A model generated the notes under the pieces. The model saw only the letters and a program-made list of their open reading frames with translations, was not told the DNA's origin and made no database searches. The position numbers and the translations under genes were made by a program. Positions 3,615-26,756 of a stretch of 32,000 nucleotides of DNA are shown piece after piece; position 1 is the first letter of the stretch; every line of letters starts with the position of its first letter. This DNA is from Mycoplasma mobile 163K (lineage in GTDB: Bacteria; Bacillota_I; Bacilli_A; Mycoplasmatales; Metamycoplasmataceae). The DNA lies in assembly GCF_000008365.1 (NCBI RefSeq), contig NC_006908.1:450001-482000 (forward strand). Reading direction: 5' to 3'.

Positions 3615-4787
3615 ATGAAATATAATGAACAAAATTTTGAAGACAAATTAGACTTTATTTATGATTTAGTACTAAAAAATAAAACAAGTGAATTAAGTAA
3701 AGATGAATTTAAAACTAGAATAAAATCAATAATTGAAAGACTAAAAAATAAGAATATAAAATTTAGTCAATATTGATCTGGAAATTTAGGATTTTTTCTA
3801 TATAAAAATTCTCAAAAATTAGATTATGAAAATTTTTCTAAAAATTACACAAACAAAATAAATAAAAGTGCATTTGATATTTTTCATTCCTTAAATAGAA
3901 ATGAAAAATATCTAGATTTAGTAAATAAAAAACAATTTTTTGAACTTCTAGAAGCTTTAGAGGCTTTAAGTTCTTTTGATCTTAAGATTGTTGAATTGAA
4001 AAAATGATCAAAATGATTAACAGAAATTTTTGATAGTGAAATTTTGCTACAATATCTAAAATATATTTCAGATCCAATCATGTATTTTTTAGTAATTATC
4101 AAAGATGTTTTAATGCCTTTAAAAAAAATGAAGCAGATAGAAAAAAATGAATTTTACAATGAACTTACTAAAAATCAAAAGCACTTTCAGAAAACATTTA
4201 TCCATAATGAAACAAAATATAATTTGAAATTAAAATCAGTTCAAGAATATGATAAAGAAAATTTAGAAAATTTAAAATTAACTAAAGATGATGAAGATTT
4301 AAAAATGTCTTTAGATTTTGCTAAAAAATACAATATTAGTTTTCTAAGACTTTTTCAATTTTTAAGTTTTCCCTTTTTCATTGAAGAATTAGATAATATT
4401 CCTCAAAATATTTTTCTTGAACATAAAGATAATATTATTGTTTATAGTTCAAAGTACTATTGAGGATTTGAATTAAATGCTTCGGAATTTTTCTATAGAT
4501 TAATTCAAAAACACGAGAGAATTATTCCTTTTGTTTTTTTGTTTATGGAAAGCAGATCTAAAAAAATGGAAACAGAATACATTGAATTCACCAAATTACT
4601 TGATTTTTTCTTAATTTCAGAATCTAGTAACGAACCACTGGCTAAAATTATTTTATTAGCTTTAGAAGAAAAAGACAAATATGATATTTTGTTAAACGAT
4701 TTAAAATTTGTTAAAAATGAAGAATTATTTGCAAAAATTGACAAAGAAATTGATTCAATAAAAGAAGCATTATTTGAAGTAAATTAA
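3615..4787 (+). CDS. Hypothetical protein (paralogue A of a tandem pair), 390 aa
   Basis: ATG at 3615. Track ORFs 4044..4463 and 4539..4787 are in the same frame, and only TGA codons interrupt it (checked). No signal peptide or TM segment is evident and the composition looks helical. It shares 'DFAKKYNISFLRL', 'KW...' and 'EFYNELTK' blocks with the next gene. Confidence 0.6.
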
Positions 4788-4788
4788 C

Positions 4789-5859
4789 ATGAACAGTTTC
4801 CTATTAAGTGAAAATATTAGTAAAATTATTGATTTACACTTTAAAAAGTACAAAAAAATTGGTACTTTTTTAACTTATGAGGAATATAAAAGTACTCTAA
4901 TAAATTTCATGGGTTTTTTATTTGATAATGATTTATCTTTCTTATCATGAGAAACTATTCAAAAAAATTCCTCTGAAATTTTACTTGTCTCTAATGAAAC
5001 AATCAATAACTTTACTACTTCTTTAGTAAAGGTAAAAAGTGAAAAGTCAAAAGTCTTTCAAAATCGTGAATTAATTCAATACATTAATTCTTATGAAGAA
5101 TTTATTATAGATAAAATAGATTTTCATTTTTATAAATTTTTTGTAAAATTTTATGAAAAGATTAAAAACGAAAAATTGATAAAAAATGATTTTAAAGAAA
5201 TAAGATTTTTTACAAAATGAATGAACGAAAATATAGACTATGAAAAAATTTTAATTTTAGAATCTGAATATCCTGTTTCTGAATATTTGAATTTAATATT
5301 TAATATTTTAAAACCTATTGCAAAAGGACAGCATGTAGGTATTAAACAAAGAGAAACTTTTTATAAAGAATTAAAAGAAATATTATTGTTTAAAGAAACA
5401 TACCTCTTTAAACAAAATGATAGTTTAGAGAGAATCAAAAAATCTTTAAAAGTTTTTGGACCAACACTTTTTAGTGATGAAGAAAAAGTCAAAAAGATGA
5501 TTGTTGATTTTTCAAAAAAATATAATATTAACTTGATTTTACTCATGAATTCTTTGTATGTAGTTGATTCTATAAAAATTTTTGAATCATTTCCTCAAGA
5601 TTTATTTGCAAAAAACAATAAGTATATTTATATTGCAGATATTGCAAATGCAATAGGAATGGATATTATCGAATTTTGATTTGTTTCAAAACAAAAGTTT
5701 GATAATTTCGATCATTTTTATGAGTTTTATATCAAAAATTGTAGAAAAAATAATTTATATATTCTAAAATCTTTTTCAGAATTTGAAATATTTTTGAAAC
5801 ATGATTTTCATACAGATTTAATTTACAAGAAAATTTATTCAGCAAGAAAAAGAATTTAA
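4789..5859 (+). CDS. Hypothetical protein (paralogue B of a tandem pair), 356 aa
   Basis: ATG at 4789, one base after the stop of the previous gene. It is in frame with track ORF 5221..5679 and continues through TGA at 5677 to TAA at 5857..5859. The blocks 'DFSKKYNINLILL' and 'TFYKELKE' are homologous to gene 3615..4787. Confidence 0.6.
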
Positions 5860-5917: not shown

Positions 5918-6343
5918 ATGAATAACAAAAAAGATTTTTATAGCCCAACAAAACATGAAAAATATATCAGCCAAGTGAATTTAAAGTTGAAAAATAATAA
6001 GGATTTTCATCTTGTTTTTATTATTTTGAAACTTAGCAATAATAAAATTAGTCTTAATAGATCTAAGATAAAATGAATTGTTGTTTTTTGTGAAATGATT
6101 GAAGATATATTTTGCAAAAAACAAAGTGAAATTTTAAAGTATTTAAACAAAAAAATATATTCACCATTTGAATATTCACATAATTTACATCTTTTAAAAT
6201 TAGAATTGCAACTATTTTTTAAATTCAAAAGAGATTTTAAAAAAATTTGAATTTTAATGTTTTTTTTAATACTTGTATATAAAAAAAATAGAATTATAAT
6301 TTTAAAATATTTGTATTGCTTAAAAAATGCATTAGTTTACTAA
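5918..6343 (+). CDS. Hypothetical small protein (141 aa) with a hydrophobic C-terminus
   Basis: A 142-codon frame with no TAA or TAG, which is unusual for such AT-rich DNA, and two in-frame TGA codons. The stop lies inside the terminator hairpin shared with clpB. No homology was recognised. Confidence 0.4.
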
Positions 6344-6353
6344 TGCATTTTTT
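6322..6353. terminator. Bidirectional rho-independent terminator hairpin between convergent genes
   Basis: Perfect 14-nt arms AAAAAATGCATTAG and CTAATGCATTTTTT flank a TTTA loop, with A and T runs on both sides. The stop codons of clpB (6332..6334) and of ORF 5918..6343 both lie inside the arms. Confidence 0.7.
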
Positions 6354-8467
6354 ATAACAAGATTCTCATTTTCAATCAAAATAATATAAGATTCATTAGG
6401 TTTCAAATTTCCTGAAATAATATTTAAAGCAATTTTGCTTTGGATTTTATTTTGAATAACTCTTTTCAGTGGTCTTGCTCCATAAAGATTATCATATCCT
6501 TGTTTTGAAATATATTCAACTATTGAATCATCGAATTTAATGAAAATAGTTTGATTTTGATAAACTCTTTTTTCTAATTCATTTAATTCATTTTCTATTA
6601 TTTCTTTTATTGTATCTTTATCCAGTTCTTTAAATGGGATAATTTCATCAATTCTATTTAAAAACTCTGGTTTTACAAATTTTAATAGTATTTTCCTCAA
6701 TTCTTTAGGATCATACACTTTTTCTAAAATTAAATCGGAACCCAAATTAGTAGTCATTATAATTATTGTATTTTTAAAATTAATTGTTTTACCTTTAGCA
6801 TCGGTTAATATTCCATCATCTAAAATTTGCAATAAAACATTTAAGACATCGGGATGAGCTTTTTCTAATTCATCAAAAAGCACAATCGAATAAGGTTTTT
6901 GTCTAATCAATTCTGTTAATTGGCCACCATTTTCATATCCAATATACCCTGGTGGAGATCCGATTATTTTAGAAATTGAATGTTTCTCTGAATATTCTGA
7001 CATGTCTAATCTAATGAGTTGTTTTTTACTATCAAAAAGAACATAAGCAAGTGATTTGGCTAATTCTGTTTTTCCTACTCCTGTTGGACCCATAAAAATA
7101 AAAGAACCAATTGGCTTGTTAGGATCATTGATATTTGCTCTAGATCTTAAAATTGTATCCGAAACAAGTTCAATAGCTTCTTCTTGCCCTTTTACTTGTT
7201 TTTTTAGTTCAGATTGTAAGTTTAATAATTTATCTTTTTGTTTTTCTAATAATTTAGAAATTGGGATCATTGTTCATTTGCTAACAATTTCAGCAATTTC
7301 ATTTTCTGTAACATCTTCTTTTATTAAACTATTTTTTTCTTTATTTAAATTTTCTAATATTTTCAATTCTTTTTCAATTTTTGGTAAATCACTATACATG
7401 ATTTTTGAAGCTTTTTCATATAGACCTTCATTTTGCAATTTTGAAACTTCATGTTTCAGACTCTCAATTTTTCTTTTCTTATCATTTAATTCAATAACAA
7501 CATTTTTTTCTGAAATTCATTTTTCGCTTAATATTTTATGTTCAGAGTTTAGTTTTTTTAATTCATTATTAAGCTCTTCAACTCTTAAATTACTTTGAAT
7601 AGTATTTTCAGATTTCAAAGCTGCTTTTTCAGTTTCAAAAGTAATAATTTTTTGTTGAATTTTTTCTAATTCTTCGGGTTGAGAATTAATTTCAGTTTTA
7701 ATTGTCGAAGCTGCTTCATCCACTAAATCAATTGCTTTATCTGGTAAAAAACGATCTGAAATATATCTAGCAGATAAATTTGCTGCTGCAATCAAAGCCT
7801 TGTCACTTATTTTTACATTATGAAATGTTTCAAATCTTCCTTTTATACCTCTTAAAATTGTAATTGTGTCTTCGATGTTAGGTTCAGCAACTTTTACTTT
7901 TTGCATTCTTCTTTCTAAAGCTGAATCACTTTCAATGTATTTTCTATATTCTTCGATTGTTGTGGCTCCTACTAGTTGCATTTGTCCTCTTGCTAAAGCC
8001 GGTTTAAAAATATTTGCAGCATCCATTGTAGAATTTGAACTGTTTTTTCCGGTCCCAATCAGTAAATGAATTTCATCAATAAAAATTATGTATTTTCCTT
8101 GATTTTTTTCGATTTTATCCATTAAACTTTTGATTCTTTCTTCAAATTGCCCTTGGTAAGATGCTCCTGCAATTAAAGAAGGTAAGCTTATTTCTATTAC
8201 TTCTTTATTTTTTAAATCTTCTGGAACTTGTGCATCATGGATTTTTTTTGCCAAACCTTCTACAATTGCAGTTTTCCCTACACCTGGTTCTCCAACAAGA
8301 ACAGGGTTATTTTTTGTTTTTCTTGATAAAATTCTAATAATTCTTCTAATTTCGTCTTCTCTACCAATAACAGGTTCTAACATGTTTTTCTTAGCCAAAT
8401 CTGTTAAATTCCTTCCAAATTGTTTCAATGGATCATTATCATCTGGTTTTTTGTAGTTCATTTGCAT
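6332..8467 (-). CDS. clpB: ATP-dependent chaperone ClpB (short form without the N-terminal domain), 711 aa
   Basis: Track ORFs 6332..7270 and 7517..8467 are in the same frame and joined through TGA codons (checked). Two AAA+ modules carry Walker A motifs 'GEPGVGKT' and 'GPTGVGKT'. A coiled-coil M-domain lies between them, and a GAGGAG RBS lies upstream. Confidence 0.97.
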
Positions 8468-13054: not shown

Positions 13055-13879
13055 ATGCCTGAATTACCAGAAGTAAAAACCGTTATTTTACATTTAAAAA
13101 AACTTATATTAGATAAAACAATTTCGAAAATTGAGATTTTTATCCCTAAAATGATAAAAGAAATTTCAAGTGAAGAGTTTAAAAAATATTTAGAAAATGA
13201 AACTATTTTCAATATTGAAAACGAAGGAAAATTTATTGTCTTTTTTTTAAGTAATAATAAAATTATGTTGTCTCACCTTAGAATGGAAGGAGGATATAAT
13301 TTTTATTCCAAAAAAAGACAAAAAGAAATTCATGATAGATTGATTTTTCATTTTACTGATGGATCTTCATTACATTATCACGATTCAAGAATGTTTGGTA
13401 CATTTCATTTTAGAAATAGTGAAAATTATTTGAAAATTAAACCTTTATCCTTAGTGGCTCCTGTTCCGTGAAAAATTGATTTAGATGAATTTTTTAAGCT
13501 TTTAAAAAGAAAAAAAACTGCAATCAAAAAAATTTTGTTAGATCAACAAATAATTGCAGGTTTAGGAAATATTTATGTTGATGAAACTTTATTTGCTTCT
13601 AAAGTTCATCCTGAATTTAAAGCAAATCAATTATCTTTAGAACAAGTAAAGTTAATATTGAAAAATGCAACAAGAATTTTACAAGAATCAACTAAATTAG
13701 GTGGCTCTTCAATTAGAAGTTATACTTCTTTAAATGAAAAAGAAGGATCTTTTCAAAATTTCTTGCAAGTTCATACAAAATTTAATAAGCCTTGCCCTAA
13801 TTGTGGTGAATTGATCCAAAAAATAAAACTTGGTGGAAGAGGGACATATTTTTGTAAAAAATGTCAACAACTAAATTAG
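13055..13879 (+). CDS. mutM: Formamidopyrimidine-DNA glycosylase (Fpg/MutM), 274 aa
   Basis: The catalytic N-terminus 'MPELPEVKTV' is present, followed by 'LLDQQIIAGLGNIYVDETLF'. A C-terminal zinc finger reads 'CPNCGELIQKIKLGGRGTYFCKKCQ'. Two track ORFs join through one TGA codon. Confidence 0.95.
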
Positions 13880-16398
13880 TTATTGCTTAATTTGTCAATT
13901 GCAATAATAATACTTTCAAATGAGTTGAATTTATTTAAATGAGATTTTATTAGCAAATTAGCTTGTTTGGATTTTGTTTTTAAAAATTTATAAATTATAT
14001 TTTTAATTGTTTTTAAAATAATTAAATTTTTAGGAACACTTAAAATTTCAAAAATTTCAACTAACGCATTCAATAAAAGAGTTATCGAATTTTCAAAAGT
14101 TTCAAAATCATTATTTTCTTGACAATATTCATATAAAGAACTTGAAAAAGGTCTTGTTATTCTGAAAAGATATTTTCTAGATTTAAAAACATCAAAAGCA
14201 TTTAAAGTATTTAATTCAGAATTAAATGTTCTTGTATTTAGTAAATATTTTTTAACAAAAGGATTTTTAGCTAAGTAATACATCAAGAACTTAACATCTT
14301 TAAAATCTTTTATAGATTCAGTGATAGCTGATAAATATTTAAAAAATAATTTATAGTTTTGTTTTATGTATTTTTTTGCAATATTGGCTCGATTAAATTT
14401 ACCATTTAAGGGGTATTTCAATTCCAAACTAACATAATCTAAAAATTTGAAAATTAATTCTTTTAAATGATTATTATTTATTAAAAACCATAAAGTAAAA
14501 AGCAAATTTTTTTCTTGAATTTTATATTTAAAATTGTTCAAAATTAATTGATCAATTTCTAATTTTATTTTTTCAGTATTTAATAGTGAATCAAAAAGTT
14601 CGAATAAATCTATCAAAAATTGTTTTACATATTTTTCTGAAAAATTTGCTAAAAAATTTATGTAATTATCAATCTTACTAAACTCTAAATAATGATCAAA
14701 AAGAATAGAAGATAATTTTTTTAAAAATAAAACAAAAGAATTTGAACTTACAATTAAATTATATAATGACTTTACTGTTTCAAAATCGGCTTTTGTAGAA
14801 AGGTTTTTTACATATGATTCAATAAATTTTTCATAAAAAATTTTTGTTAAATTTTGATCATTCAATAAAATAAATGAAGTTTGCACAAAAGTATTTTTTA
14901 TTAATGAATTATTATTTTTCAAAAAATCATCTTTATAAAAATAATTCAAAAATCTATAATAAGTTTCTTTATTAGAAAGATTTTTAATTATTATTTTTTT
15001 GAAGATTTTTAAATCTAAAAAATCTCCAATTTTTTTTGAAGAAAAAGGATAGAAATCAATCGAATTTTGAATATTTTGAAAAATTTCTTCAATTAAATTG
15101 CTATCTAAAATTACTTTTGCTAATTTAATATAATTATTATTTTCTTCTAAAAAAAATTTTATTTTCATAGCTAAATTTTCATTTCATTTTTCTAAATATG
15201 AAACAAGCAATTGAAAATATTTGTATAAAAATTTTTCATTTACCAAAAATAAAATTGTTAAAATTTTTTTTAAAACAATTTTTTGACTAAATGGTAATAG
15301 AATTTTTTCTTCTGAATTAAAAGATTCTAATTCTTCATCATTTGAATTTGTATAAAGATCTGTTAAGGGTTTTTTGTACTTTAAAATTTGTCTAAAATTT
15401 TTGTGATCACTTAAAAAATAATTAAATGAATAATTTTTCTTGTACATTTGTGCAATTTCAAAAGAAAAATTATCAGGAAAACTGAGTTTAAAGAAAATAT
15501 CTTTTGCCATTTTTTTATAAGCAATTTGGGTTGGGTGATAATCAAAAGGTGAACGATTATAAATCTTAATATTTTTTTCAAAATTTAATTTGTCAAAAGT
15601 ATTAATCAAATATATATCTTCGAATAAAGATATTGTTTTTTCTACTATTTTATTTATATTGTTATTAATAGAATTTAATAAATTCAGTTCTGTGTTTTTA
15701 TAATTAACTTTTAATATGTTTTCAAGTCTAAAAAAGAAATTAGGAGGAATGATGTAAACAATAGCTGCGTTTGGATTTTTTTCTCTTAAAGTTTTTAGCA
15801 CTTCAAAAAGATCTACTTTAAAATCTTTTTGTTTTTTTATAAAGCTTTCTCAAAATAAATTAATATTATTTTTTTCTGAAACAAATACATTAAGTAGAAT
15901 TTTTTCAAGAGGGAAATCTCAAAAAATATCATTAAAACCTAAAGTTATTGTGATTAGATTAGCAGATTGGATTAAAGAATTAAAATTTTCATATTTTACT
16001 TCTGATTCATTTGGATTAAACTTGATTTTAAAATCATCTTTGAAAACATTAGAAAGATCAGGATCCTGATCTTTAAGTAAATTTAATTTAATTATATTTT
16101 CTGAATTTAAAAAAGAATGGTCCTTTTTTTTAGAATTTAAAAAGTACAATACATCTTTAGCTCTTGCACCTAAAAACGAGTAATTTTCAAATCATTCTAG
16201 TTTAATTTCATCATTATTTTTTAAAAAAATATCAGCTAAATACGAAGGGAAATTAATTCCTAATTTTTTGCTATGCTCAGATTTAAAATAACCTGGGTAT
16301 TGATTACTATAAAAAACTGAATAACCTAAAGAAAAATCATCTCCAATAGCAAGATATCTTATTTTTTCAGAAATACTTATAGCTTTTTTTCTATACAT
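13876..16398 (-). CDS. SGNH/GDSL-type hydrolase domain fused to a large (~500 aa) helical domain of unknown function, 840 aa
   Basis: Four track ORFs (13876..15168, 15184..15801, 15919..16149, 16192..16398) share one frame, and the gaps contain only TGA codons (each junction checked). SGNH blocks are 'YLAIGDDFSLGY' (I), 'ITLGFNDIF' (III) and 'FDYHPTQIAYKKMA' (V). Confidence 0.7.
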
Positions 16399-22888: not shown

Positions 22889-24079
22889 ATGACAAAAAAA
22901 ATAAATGCAATAGTAATTCTTCAAGCAAACAAAATTGAACTAAGAATTATGGAGACATTTGAAAAAAGAATTTTTCAAATATATTCATCTAGCTGTGATG
23001 AAGATTCAAAATATTCAAAATTTATCTCTGAATCTATTATGCAAGTTAATAAAAAGTTTTCTTTGAATATTAAAGAAATTGTTTTTGTCATTTTAATTGC
23101 CAAAGGAATTAAATTAAACTTGGAAAAAAGATTTTCAACAATTGAAGTGAATGGAAAAATCTCACTTGAACACATTGAAAAATCAATTAAAATTGAAAAA
23201 GATTCTTTAAAGCAAAATGACCAAGTAGCTATTCTATCAAGACCTTATAAATATGAAGTTCTTTCTAAAAATGATCAAATCGCAACTTTCAATGAAGTAC
23301 CTTTAGATATAGAGGCAAAAGAATTAAAAACCTATAGTGTTGTATCACATATTAGTTCAAGTATTTATAATTATATTATTAACCTTTGTGAAAATGCAAA
23401 CATTACTTTAAAAACTATCGTTACAGATTCTCATTTAAACCAATATTTATTAGACAACAATAGTTTTTTAATTGAAAATAAAGAAAAATCTCTTATAAAC
23501 ATTAATGAAGAAAGTGTAACAATCAACATTTATAATAACAATGTTTTAATAGATTATCACATTTTATCTTTTGGGACAAAATATATTTATGAGAAAATTT
23601 TCAAAAATCATGATTCAATAACTTCTGAAGAGGCTAAGAAAATTTTTAGTATTTACACTGATTTTAATAAGTTCAATAGTGAAAAGCAAGTTGCATTGAA
23701 TTCTAATTTAACTTTAAAAAAATTGAATCAATATACGCTACTTTTTTTTGAAAAGATTTTTGAAGAATTTAATAAAAAATTTTCGCTTGTTTCAAGAGAT
23801 ACAATTTATTTAACAGGTGAAGGTTCTTCAATTTTAGATCTTGAAAAAATTATTAATTCTAATTTTGAAAAAAATGGAATTGATACAAAATGCCATGTTA
23901 ATAGTTTTATTACATACCAACTTCTAAATGAAGAAAAAAATTCCTACATGGCTACAAAATATATAAATAGTATGATAGATACTAAAATGGAAAATAATTT
24001 TCTAATTACAAAACCATTAAAAATATTGCAAACATATGAGTTTATTTCAAATACTTCTGAAAATTACTTAATTTCTTAA
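22889..24079 (+). CDS. Divergent FtsA-like (actin/HSP70-fold) cell-division protein, 396 aa
   Basis: It occupies the position after mraZ-rsmH. 'IYLTGEGSSILDLEKII' parallels the FtsA 'vvLTGGGa.l.Gl.el' block, and 'LININEESVTINIYNN...LSFGTKYIYEKI' parallels 'vvDIGGGTTdiavf...ipiGG..iT.DI'. The nucleotide-binding glycines and aspartates are largely lost. Confidence 0.6.
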   Translation: MTKKINAIVILQANKIELRIMETFEKRIFQIYSSSCDEDSKYSKFISESIMQVNKKFSLNIKEIVFVILIAKGIKLNLEKRFSTIEVNGKISLEHIEKSIKIEKDSLKQNDQVAILSRPYKYEVLSKNDQIATFNEVPLDIEAKELKTYSVVSHISSSIYNYIINLCENANITLKTIVTDSHLNQYLLDNNSFLIENKEKSLININEESVTINIYNNNVLIDYHILSFGTKYIYEKIFKNHDSITSEEAKKIFSIYTDFNKFNSEKQVALNSNLTLKKLNQYTLLFFEKIFEEFNKKFSLVSRDTIYLTGEGSSILDLEKIINSNFEKNGIDTKCHVNSFITYQLLNEEKNSYMATKYINSMIDTKMENNFLITKPLKILQTYEFISNTSENYLIS

Positions 24080-24129: not shown

Positions 24130-24205
24130 TGGTGGCTCCGGCAGGAATTGAACCAGCGACACACGGAGCTTCAATCCGTTGCTCTACCGACTGAGCTACA
24201 GAGCC
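24130..24205 (-). tRNA. tRNA-Phe (anticodon GAA), CCA encoded
   Basis: The reverse complement is GGCTCTGTAGCTCAGTCGGTAGAGCAACGGATTGAAGCTCCGTGTGTCGCTGGTTCAATTCCTGCCGGAGCCACCA. The anticodon stem ACGGA/TCCGT leaves loop TTGAAGC. Confidence 0.93.
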
Positions 24206-24208
24206 AAA

Positions 24209-24285
24209 TGGCGGTCCAGACGGGGTTCGAACCCGCGATCTCCTCCGTGACAGGGAGGCGTATTAAACCACTTTACCACTGAACC
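24209..24285 (-). tRNA. tRNA-Asp (anticodon GTC), CCA encoded
   Basis: The reverse complement is GGTTCAGTGGTAAAGTGGTTTAATACGCCTCCCTGTCACGGAGGAGATCGCGGGTTCGAACCCCGTCTGGACCGCCA. The anticodon stem CCTCC/GGAGG leaves loop CTGTCAC. Confidence 0.93.
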
Positions 24286-24287
24286 AT

Positions 24288-24362
<75 letters not shown>

Positions 24363-24385
24363 ATATTATTTTTTTGTGTAAATTC

Positions 24386-24414
24386 ATTATAGCAAAAATA
24401 AAAATATTTGTAAA
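24386..24414 (-). promoter_or_regulatory. Near-consensus internal promoter driving tRNA-fMet/Asp/Phe
   Basis: On the minus strand there is TTTACA (24414..24409), a 17-nt spacer, then TGC-TATAAT (extended -10; TATAAT at 24391..24386). It lies about 24 nt upstream of the tRNA-fMet 5' end. Confidence 0.7.
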
Positions 24415-24436
24415 TTTTTTTGAAATTTATTTAAAT

Positions 24437-24465
24437 AAAAAAATTCAACAAATATTGAATTTTTT
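24437..24465. terminator. AT-rich hairpin (weak terminator) after tRNA-Ser
   Basis: AATTCAA (24442..24448) and TTGAATT (24455..24461) flank a 6-nt loop, with an A6 run on one side and a T run on the other. The stem is short and contains only A/T plus one G-C pair, so function is uncertain. Confidence 0.45.
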
Positions 24466-24481
24466 ATGGTGATATAACAAA

Positions 24482-24572
24482 TGGCGGGCAATGAGGGATT
24501 CGAACCCCCGCGAGTTTTACCTCCTGACGGTTTTCAAGACCGTTCCCTTCAGCCAGACTTGGGTAATTGCCC
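24482..24572 (-). tRNA. tRNA-Ser (anticodon TGA), long variable arm, CCA encoded
   Basis: The reverse complement is GGGCAATTACCCAAGTCTGGCTGAAGGGAACGGTCTTGAAAACCGTCAGGAGGTAAAACTCGCGGGGGTTCGAATCCCTCATTGCCCGCCA. The anticodon stem ACGGT/ACCGT leaves loop CTTGAAA. Confidence 0.92.
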
Positions 24573-24576
24573 TTTT

Positions 24577-24653
24577 TGGTAGTCCTAGCTGGGATTGAAC
24601 CAGCGACCTCACGATTATAAGTCGTGTGCTCTAACCGACTGAGCTATAGGACC
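24577..24653 (-). tRNA. tRNA-Ile with anticodon TAT (UAU), CCA encoded
   Basis: The reverse complement is GGTCCTATAGCTCAGTCGGTTAGAGCACACGACTTATAATCGTGAGGTCGCTGGTTCAATCCCAGCTAGGACTACCA. The anticodon stem CACGA/TCGTG leaves loop C-T-TAT-A-A. The body is Ile-like (GGxCCTxTAGCTCAGxxGGTTAGAGC). Confidence 0.88.
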
Positions 24654-24676
24654 ACAAAGACGGTGCCTTTAGTATA

Positions 24677-24753
24677 TGGTAGCTCCGAAGAGAGTCGAAC
24701 TCTTGACCTTTCGGGTATGAACCGAATGCTCTAACCAGCTGAGCTACAGAGCC
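24677..24753 (-). tRNA. Elongator tRNA-Met (anticodon CAT), CCA encoded
   Basis: The reverse complement is GGCTCTGTAGCTCAGCTGGTTAGAGCATTCGGTTCATACCCGAAAGGTCAAGAGTTCGACTCTCTTCGGAGCTACCA. The loop TTCATAC and the GGTTCATACCC context are typical of elongator Met rather than Ile2. Confidence 0.85.
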
Positions 24754-24758
24754 ATATA

Positions 24759-24835
24759 TGGTGGAGAGGAAGGGATTCGAACCCTCTACCTCCTGCGTGC
24801 AAGGCAGGCGCTCTAGCCAAGTGAGCTACCCCCCC
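24759..24835 (-). tRNA. tRNA-Ala (anticodon TGC), CCA encoded
   Basis: The reverse complement is GGGGGGGTAGCTCACTTGGCTAGAGCGCCTGCCTTGCACGCAGGAGGTAGAGGGTTCGAATCCCTTCCTCTCCACCA. The G3:U70 identity pair is present and the loop is CTTGCAC. Confidence 0.93.
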
Positions 24836-24836
24836 A

Positions 24837-24913
24837 TGGTGAAGAAGACAGGATTCGAACCTGCGACCACTTGGTCCCAAACCAAGTGCTCTACCAAGCT
24901 GAGCTACTTCTCC
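24837..24913 (-). tRNA. tRNA-Pro (anticodon TGG), CCA encoded
   Basis: The reverse complement is GGAGAAGTAGCTCAGCTTGGTAGAGCACTTGGTTTGGGACCAAGTGGTCGCAGGTTCGAATCCTGTCTTCTTCACCA. The anticodon stem CTTGG/CCAAG leaves loop TTTGGGA. Confidence 0.92.
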
Positions 24914-25020: not shown

Positions 25021-25365
25021 ATGAACAAGAGCTCTTTAAAAAAAACTTTTTTAATAATGTTTACCATTTTTTTTGGTTTTTTAGGATTTGATAAGTGATA
25101 TTTAGGTTTTAAAAAAATGGCTTTAATAAAAGGATTGTTTTTGAGTGTTTTTGGAGTTTTTGGAATTTTCTTTTTGATTATATTTTCCTCAGTAAATTTT
25201 GGTGCTATAAACATTAACCTTTTATCTTTCCCTATAGGTTTGACTATTTTAGGTAGTATAATTATTGCAATTTACTTTTTAACCATTATGTGATATCTAT
25301 ATGACATATTAAGAGCTTTTTTAGGAAAAACTAAAGATAAAAATAAATTGAATGTTAGCAATTAA
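25021..25365 (+). CDS. TM2-domain small membrane protein, 114 aa
   Basis: The product starts 'MNKSSLKKTFLIMFTIFFGFLGFDKWYLGFKKMALIKGLFL...', which is the TM2 motif (G.lG.hrFYlG....G). It has three hydrophobic helices and two in-frame TGA codons. The track shows only a spurious antisense ORF here. Confidence 0.7.
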
Positions 25366-26090
25366 ATAATTTTTGTTCCTTTTCCTAAAATATTTTCAAA
25401 ATAAGAAGAATTTATTTTCTTTTTTAATTTATGTAGTATTTGATCTACAACTCTTGAATTATCTGTATCATTTTCTATATCTCAAACATATCGAAAAATT
25501 CTATTTTTGTCAATTGAATCTGAATCACGATTATGAAGTAAAAAAGACAAAACTAGAAATTCTTTTTTTGTTAATTCTAAAATTTTATTGTTGTAAAAAA
25601 ATTTATTTGAGACAAAATCTAAAAAAAGTGATCTATGTGAGATGAAATTACCTGATTCAAACCCTTTGAAATAGTTTTTCAAATATGATAAATTAGAGAT
25701 TTTAAAAATTTCGTAATTTTCATTATAGTACAAAATATCATTATTGATATTTCTTAAAAAAAATGTGCTATTCTCATTATATTTGTTTAATAATCAAAAA
25801 ATCTTACTATTAGGAAATAAAGTATTAATTAATTGATATTTATCTTCAGTTAAAATTTGCTCCTTATGAAAATTTTCCACAATTACAAAATTGTAATTTT
25901 GCAATGTTGCTGTAGTTAAATTGTCTAAAAAACAATAATAAACATCTACAAAAAAGTACCTTTCTAGATCTCTAAAGAAGATATTTAAATTTTCGTTATT
26001 ATTATCATTTTTGAGTACAAGTAATTTAAGATTGGGATTGCTTTTCATAAAATTATTATATAGCAAATCAATAAAATGTAAAATATTCAT
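25362..26090 (-). CDS. OmpR/PhoB-family winged-helix transcriptional regulator with a degenerate receiver-like N-terminal domain, up to 242 aa
   Basis: Track ORFs 25482..25733 and 25794..26090 are in one frame and joined through TGA codons, and the frame continues through TGA at 25482 to TAA at 25362..25364. The C-terminal sequence 'LTKKEFLVLSFLLHNRDSDSIDKNRIFRYVWDIENDTDNSRVVDQILHKLKKKI' matches Trans_reg_C (LTxxEfxLLxxLxxNxGxvxsRexLxxxvWgxxxxxxxRtvDvhIxrLRkKi). A likely alternative start is Met15 (ATG at 26048). Confidence 0.75.
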
Positions 26091-26756
26091 ATGTCTCTAA
26101 AAAATATTGAATCAATTATAATAAAAAGTGAAAATTTCCAAGAATTTGATGTAATTTTGAGTGTTATGGATTTTAATAAAATTTATCCAATAATTGCACT
26201 TGGAGTTAGAAAAATTAAAAGCAAAAATCGCAATGGAGTTTTACTAGGATCATATAGCGAATTAGAATTTTTTGAAGCTAGATTAAATAACAAAACTTCA
26301 AAACTTAAAAAAGCACATTTAATTAAAAATTTTGACTTACTAAATTCAGAAAACTTACTTATTGTTCAAGAATTGTTTAAATATATTAATAAAGTAAATG
26401 TTAATACTCAAGCAGTTTTCAATTCTTATTTAGAATGTTTGGATGAATTTGGAAAAGGAAATAATTTTTTTATAAAAACTTACATTGTCAATAAAACTTT
26501 ATTTTCACTAGGGTTAAATGTTAATTATTCTTTTTGTTATAAATGTGGGACAAATCAAAAATTAGCCAACTTTTCTTTTTTTGAAGGAGGTTTTTCTTGT
26601 TTTAAGCATTCGAAAAATAAATTGAATGCAAAAATTCTTCAAAGTATTTATAATTTAAATATAAGTTTTAAAAAATATGTTGAAACAACTTCGGCAGAAA
26701 CAAATATTTTTATATTTAATATATTAAAAAATTACATTGATGAAAATACTTTTTAA
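26091..26756 (+). CDS. recO: DNA repair protein RecO, 221 aa
   Basis: The ORF is intact. An N-terminal OB-like region 'IESIIIKSENFQEFDVILSVM' is followed by the zinc-finger region 'CYKCGTNQKLANFSFFEGGFSCFKH'. Confidence 0.8.
   Translation: MSLKNIESIIIKSENFQEFDVILSVMDFNKIYPIIALGVRKIKSKNRNGVLLGSYSELEFFEARLNNKTSKLKKAHLIKNFDLLNSENLLIVQELFKYINKVNVNTQAVFNSYLECLDEFGKGNNFFIKTYIVNKTLFSLGLNVNYSFCYKCGTNQKLANFSFFEGGFSCFKHSKNKLNAKILQSIYNLNISFKKYVETTSAETNIFIFNILKNYIDENTF

Follow-up and report, generated by a model that had tools for sequence, protein, structure and literature searches.

A probable orphan OmpR/PhoB-type regulator with a highly diverged receiver-like domain in Mycoplasma mobile

The regulator gene and its surroundings

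The window analysed here is a stretch of 32,000 nucleotides of the Mycoplasma mobile 163K chromosome (NC_006908.1, positions 450,001 to 482,000 of the forward strand), and all positions below are numbered within it. The GC content of the window is 24% and TGA is used as a sense codon. On the minus strand an ORF at 25362..26090 stays open for 242 codons under genetic code 4 (TGA=Trp), with two in-frame TGA codons. ORF calling with table 11 breaks this gene into fragments. The product combines a C-terminal winged helix of the OmpR/PhoB type with an N-terminal receiver-like domain. The gene is followed by a convergent gene for a TM2-domain membrane protein and preceded by a divergent recO, the same flanking genes that were named in the first-pass annotation of this DNA.

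The start of the regulator gene was initially placed at 26090. The strongest sigma-70-like site between 24900 and 26400 is TTTACA-16-TATAAT, which agrees with the consensus at 11 of 12 positions. This predicted promoter (26055..26082, minus strand) has its -35 TTTACA at 26082-26077, a 16-nt spacer and its -10 TATAAT at 26060-26055, and it ends 6 nt 5' of an ATG at 26048. The arrangement TATAAT-N6-ATG recurs in a 65%-identical orthologue (locus L001). In view of the promoter position, the same layout in the orthologue and the public gene call of 228 aa, the second methionine, at 26048, is the most likely start. The 14 additional codons of the longer form overlie the regulator's own promoter, and that start had to be given up. 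The corrected CDS is 25362..26048 (minus strand, 228 aa plus stop, with both TGA=Trp codons). The promoter layout is kept in loci L001, L009 and L011-L019, and the predicted position implies that the regulator mRNA is leaderless or nearly so. No operator-like direct repeats were found near the promoter by sequence search; short AT-rich repeats are uninformative at this GC content.

The convergent TM2 gene (25021..25365, plus strand) has a Pfam TM2 score of 26.5 bits, just under the cut-off of 27.9. Its stop codon and that of the regulator overlap in a shared 4-bp TTAA (25362-25365), and no terminator-like hairpin is present between the two genes. The TM2 gene is not kept beside the regulator in other species. 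The divergent recO (26091..26756, plus strand; Pfam RecO_N and RecO_C) starts 42 bp from the start codon of the regulator, and this pairing is kept in 11 related loci. Related loci were collected in a genome scan run with a 9-sequence subset of the family alignment. Ten of them, that of Metamycoplasma sualvi included, have recO and the regulator in divergent orientation, and past the regulator the gene order continues with a 109-aa protein, pgi and dnaN. The short contig L001 likewise carries the divergent recO pairing. The order alpha/beta-hydrolase-recO-regulator of the window is common to M. sualvi and a related MAG (L017).

The start codons of recO and the regulator are 23-42 bp apart in these loci and in the window, with back-to-back -10 boxes 5-10 nt from each ATG. 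This geometry implies two leaderless, mutually overlapping divergent promoters, as far as promoters can be predicted from sequence. In all syntenic species the recO start is no more than about 35 bp away from the -35/-10 of the regulator. With start codons so close together, a factor bound to the regulator promoter would therefore also cover the recO promoter or its 5' end. On the other side of the regulator, a conserved ORF of 108-117 aa without a Pfam match begins about 10 nt 3' of the gene and overlaps the start of pgi (L009, L011-L019). This suggests an operon of regulator, small protein and pgi in most species, an arrangement not found in M. mobile.

Two other gene orders were recovered. 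In M. todarodis, M. marinum, the isolate ATU-Cv-703 and two MAGs the regulator follows rnc-smc-coaD and lies beside ktrAB. In two uncultured genomes (L021 and L022, each with the regulator homologue at 6001-6672) the order is PTS EIICB-EIICB-EIIA-regulator-era-pstSCAB-phoU. There the homologue lies 16 nt 3' of the EIIA gene and one gene before pstS-pstCA-pstB-phoU. A link to sugar or phosphate is possible in these genomes; the window has no such neighbours.

A winged helix and a receiver-like domain

The C-terminal domain (residues 129-228; 25365..25664, minus strand) is matched by Pfam Trans_reg_C (PF00486) with E=1.3e-8 and 35.2 bits. The match spans residues 157-216 (171-230 in the 242-aa form; 25401-25580, minus strand), and because its score exceeds the curated gathering cut-off of 26.2 it is not a chance match. 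The OmpR-family winged helix recognised by the first-pass annotation is thereby confirmed. All 31 family members scanned match the same model, the best with E=6.4e-19. Single-sequence searches found the PDB sequences of DrrD, PcoR, CssR and ArlR, with matches confined to the last ~90 residues, and NCBIfam OmpR-family models also align with only the C-terminal ~90 residues. The AlphaFold model of this domain has the layout of the winged-helix fold, with a four-stranded N-terminal sheet (strands at 135-157), three helices (161-172, 181-189 and 200-212) and a C-terminal beta-hairpin wing (217-227). In Foldseek the isolated domain superposes on the DNA-binding domains of PhoB, PhoP and RstA with an RMSD of 1.4-2.4 A and a TM score of 0.77-0.87. 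The third helix, assigned from the model as the recognition helix (residues 200-212, VVDQILHKLKKKI; 25413..25451, minus strand), is the most conserved element of the family, at a mean of 3.05 bits per column.

The regulator belongs to a family of about 35 relatives (sequence clusters). A word-index search with the single sequence gave one relative only. An exhaustive search with a two-sequence profile found about 30 full-length proteins (219-248 aa, E<1e-10), and a further profile search added five more. Its members occur in marine and other uncultured mycoplasmas as well as in the M. mobile/M. sualvi lineage; the most divergent of them is the M. mobile lineage. Database names are "winged helix-turn-helix domain-containing protein" and, in one case, "response regulator transcription factor". 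Compared with the 65% orthologue, the receiver-like half has 49% identity and the winged-helix half 85%, so that the former evolves faster. The dN/dS is ~0.24 overall, ~0.32 in the receiver-like half and ~0.12 in the winged-helix half, with dS ~1 and near saturation. These ratios indicate that both domains are under purifying selection. Because dN/dS is low, ORFs are intact across the family and the predicted promoter is strong, a pseudogene is excluded on this evidence.

The N-terminal domain (residues 1-128; 25665..26048, minus strand) is far more diverged. Pfam Response_reg (PF00072) has no match in the regulator even at E<=10, and the Pfam receiver model has none in single sequences of 31 relatives even at E<=1. 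Of the two Pfam models proposed earlier as a HMMER check on the domain assignment, only Trans_reg_C is therefore significant. The whole-family profile is, however, colinear with full-length OmpR/PhoB regulators, the best being DrrD (1kgs; E=1.5e-22, profile positions 9-214), and it also matches RegX3, RitR, BasR and KdpE. Because the winged helix could supply much of this score, the N-terminal halves were cut out of the family alignment and searched separately against PDB. The N-terminal profile matches the receiver domain of ArlR end to end (E=4e-7, profile 6-125 to chain 8-126), then 2qzj at E=1e-5 and a tail of other receivers. The top matches of this search were de novo TIM barrels (sTIM11, DeNovoTIM6 and HalluTIM). 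These were rejected as artefacts of idealised beta-alpha repeats because the natural matches are all receiver domains. In profile searches, true homologues can rank below idealised beta-alpha designs.

The predicted structure agrees with the profile. AlphaFold was run on an alignment of 37 family sequences that held no canonical regulators, and it returned a model with pLDDT 88.4 and pTM 0.79; an earlier model from a 2-sequence alignment had a pLDDT of 59 and was discarded. The order b1-a1-b2-a2-b3-a3-b4-a4-b5-a5 runs over residues 7-126 and is followed by the winged helix. The top Foldseek matches against PDB are all full-length OmpR/PhoB regulators (~230 columns, E~1e-10, probability 1.0, best TM 0.54-0.56), among them the atypical RitR, HP1043 and GlnR. 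The full (beta-alpha)5 flavodoxin-like fold and the CheY homology of the REC superfamily are thus seen in the AlphaFold model and the N-terminal profile. Profile and model together identify the N-terminal half as a true but highly diverged receiver. An unrelated fold in this half, which the first-pass annotation had raised as a point to check, is contradicted by the N-terminal profile, AlphaFold and Foldseek alike.

Phosphorylation chemistry and known relatives

Alignments to DrrD and other canonical regulators place the acceptor position at the GAA codon 25875-25877 (minus strand), which encodes Glu58 (Glu72 in the 242-aa numbering). The acidic pair reads N/D, in a loop where the alignment may be off by about one column. 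The Thr/Ser site is Leu, the switch Tyr is Ile and the Lys site is Tyr. The motifs had been mapped correctly from the start: KLLVLKN covers beta1 and the acidic-pair site, NFVIVEN covers beta3 and the acceptor site, and KIFWLL covers beta4 and the Thr/Ser site. The claim that the phospho-chemistry is lost holds for the catalytic residues; the acceptor position is not simply missing and is occupied by Glu, and no acceptor Asp emerged on realignment. The regulator retains one of the five catalytic residues, and the maximum among the 37 members is three of five. The acceptor column of these members reads D15 E13 H2 T2 S2 A1 R1 F1, and 30 of them have Ile in place of the switch Tyr. A REC fold that lacks the phosphorylatable Asp and is fused to an effector domain places the protein among the aspartate-less receivers.

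Conservation within the receiver-like domain is uneven. The loops of the former active site are its least conserved parts (1.2-1.7 bits per column), and beta3, beta5 and alpha5 reach 2.4-2.6 bits (beta5 2.6, alpha5 2.4). The family signature aDDiiY...KWK..a.LRR.W lies on the alpha4-beta5-alpha5 face. This face is the dimerisation surface of active OmpR/PhoB regulators, as seen in the structures of PhoB, HP1043 and ChxR. The M. mobile regulator and one close orthologue substitute near-invariant family residues here (D103N, W117I, K118S, R124K, R125N and W127F), and for this reason a conserved dimer interface is least certain for the M. mobile protein. A conserved Cys is absent from the family, and 22 of the 37 members have no Cys at all.

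No partner kinase was found. None of the 24 window ORFs scanned against Pfam encodes a HisKA/HATPase_c kinase, in agreement with the first-pass annotation; the sole HATPase_c match among them is a GyrB/ParE-type topoisomerase subunit. Several further window ORFs (fusA, rpsG, rpsL, gatA/B/C and others) were identified by visual inspection only. The relatives examined, of all three synteny types, have no kinase within 6 kb. The scan covers the window and the flanks of the relatives, and genome-wide absence of such a kinase from M. mobile rests on a review, according to which two-component homologues are lacking in mycoplasma genomes, that of M. mobile among them (PMC4923136).

Canonical regulators such as PhoB, DrrD, ArlR and KdpE share the two-domain fold and the order of secondary structures. 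The M. mobile regulator differs from them in having neither the acceptor Asp at the end of beta3, the acidic pair, Thr/Ser and Lys nor a partner kinase in the window. A closer parallel is ChxR of Chlamydia trachomatis, a receiver-winged helix protein with Glu at the acceptor position and no cognate kinase. The genome of its host is reduced and encodes few transcription factors. ChxR is reported to be active constitutively and independently of phosphorylation, and among the residues that replace the acceptor in aspartate-less receivers Glu is the most frequent (PMC4395418). Such constitutive activity would also be expected of the M. mobile regulator. No specific sequence relationship to ChxR was detected past family level, however, and in the M. 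mobile family the Lys, the Thr/Ser and the switch Tyr are gone as well, with a receiver too divergent for Pfam PF00072. The aspartate-less receivers of the 2015 census usually keep the Lys and the Tyr/Thr coupling residues (PMC4395418), so that the M. mobile family is more degenerate than the typical member of that census.

HP1043 (HsrA) of Helicobacter pylori is also an orphan with a full, non-phosphorylatable REC fold and an OmpR-type winged helix. Its structure (2hqr) is a full-length Foldseek match at E=5.8e-8 and a profile match at E~1e-10. HP1043 is essential, its binding sites are known and it dimerises through alpha4-beta5-alpha5. A dimer of this kind fits the conservation pattern of the M. 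mobile family, although the M. mobile protein itself has the family-conserved beta5-alpha5 residues substituted. RitR of Streptococcus pneumoniae (5u8k, 5vfa), an OmpR-type regulator from the Firmicute lineage, has an aspartate-less receiver and lacks a kinase, and both its domains are matched colinearly by the whole-family profile (E=8.5e-17, profile positions 10-223). It differs in having Asn at the acceptor position and a redox switch by a linker Cys. A RitR-type redox switch was considered for the M. mobile family and is excluded at family level by the lack of a conserved Cys.

Interpretation and alternatives

The regulator is probably an orphan, phosphorylation-independent OmpR/PhoB transcription factor of the kind called aspartate-less or 'atypical' response regulators. 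A phosphorylation-independent OmpR-like factor is what the first-pass annotation had proposed, and the significant Trans_reg_C match, the receiver fold, the lack of an acceptor Asp and the lack of a kinase in the window all support it. The receiver-like domain would no longer receive phosphate. Its role may instead be structural, with dimers formed through the alpha4-beta5-alpha5 face as in HP1043 and ChxR, and this would hold the two winged helices constitutively in an arrangement competent for DNA binding. The Glu at the acceptor site may help to fix an active-like conformation, as in ChxR. Given a distance of at most about 35 bp between the regulator promoter and the recO start, the first target is likely to be the regulator's own promoter together with the overlapping recO promoter, and autoregulation would then be coupled to recO. 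This last step is more speculative and follows from geometry and synteny only; the adjacency to recO could be merely inherited gene order.

The pseudo-receiver might instead be a genuine sensor that responds to a small-molecule ligand (as JadR1), to Ser/Thr phosphorylation (as CovR, RitR and GlnR) or to the PTS. Purifying selection on the receiver-like half and retention of its full fold are compatible with such a role, and alternative inputs are documented for aspartate-less receivers (PMC4395418). In one branch of the family the regulator gene also closely follows the PTS EIIA gene, behind two EIICB genes. This context is, however, absent from the window and from most members, and no kinase of any type is found in the neighbourhood. 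Within the domain, conservation is lowest in the old active-site pocket. This speaks against a ligand site being preserved at that place, and no conserved Cys is available. Because of the variable pocket and the missing Cys a sensing role is not favoured, and we regard it as unlikely. The conservation pattern suggests a dimerisation scaffold rather than a sensor.

A bolder form of the sensor reading is that the family is perhaps the sole receiver-derived signalling module of the M. mobile/sualvi lineage, with the pseudo-receiver repurposed to sense a metabolite, the PTS state or Ser/Thr phosphorylation. This is a long shot. If true, an organism credited with almost no environmental switches would have a real one, and the overlapping recO promoters would couple the signal to recombinational repair or, in relatives, to pgi and glycolysis.

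Descent from PhoP/PhoB is also conceivable, with the regulator still controlling the pst-phoU uptake genes without a PhoR kinase. The position one gene upstream of pstS-pstCA-pstB-phoU in the two uncultured genomes points this way, as does the presence of PhoB models among the NCBIfam matches. The NCBIfam scores do not favour PhoB, however, since CopR/CusR-type, RpaB, HprR and other models score equally well or better and all are far under their cut-offs. The pst genes are also absent from the 32-kb window and from the commonest synteny type, and we consider this origin very improbable. That the gene is a decaying, functionless two-component remnant of genome reduction is scarcely credible. 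A very degenerate receiver, the place of the M. mobile lineage as the most divergent member and the strong reduction of the genome speak for it. Against it, both orthologues and about 35 diverged family clusters have an intact ORF, dN/dS is well under 1 in both halves, the promoter is near consensus, the recognition helix is highly conserved and synteny is kept.

The orphan, phosphorylation-independent factor favoured here extends a known class rather than founding a new one, because atypical aspartate-less OmpR-type regulators (ChxR, HP1043, RitR and GlnR) are already well established. The family itself is undescribed in the literature found, and our search returned no paper on it. Mycoplasmas have very few transcription factors, and M. 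mobile is a model organism for gliding motility. A receiver-derived regulator survives in mycoplasmas, though reviews report no two-component homologues in them. In the 2015 census of aspartate-less receivers, Mollicutes were among the five bacterial classes without any (PMC4395418). The family was most likely missed because detection relied on REC models that overlook it. These minimal cells have few regulatory circuits, and the regulator is a concrete, tractable candidate for one of them. It also illustrates, from nature, the extent to which a receiver domain can degenerate with its fold kept. It will be of interest mainly to mycoplasma biologists and to students of receiver-domain evolution.

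Several other features of the window were recorded. An eight-tRNA gene cluster (24130-24913, minus strand) includes tRNA-Ile with anticodon UAU (24577-24653). This tilS-independent, AUA-decoding tRNA is already published for M. mobile 163K, whose 777-kb genome has no tilS (PMC3575796). The plus-strand segment 21521-24079 contains mraZ, rsmH and then a 396-aa ORF (22889-24079) without a Pfam match, at the usual place of ftsA/ftsZ; no ftsZ is visible in the window. The 840-aa ORF at 13876-16398 (minus strand) has a sub-threshold GDSL-lipase match in its N-terminal third only, and the other ~540 residues are unmatched. The adjacent ORFs at 3615-4787 and 4789-5859 (plus strand; 390 and 356 aa) lack a Pfam match; they are tandem paralogues that have diverged, with 28% identity over 180 aa (E=5e-8).
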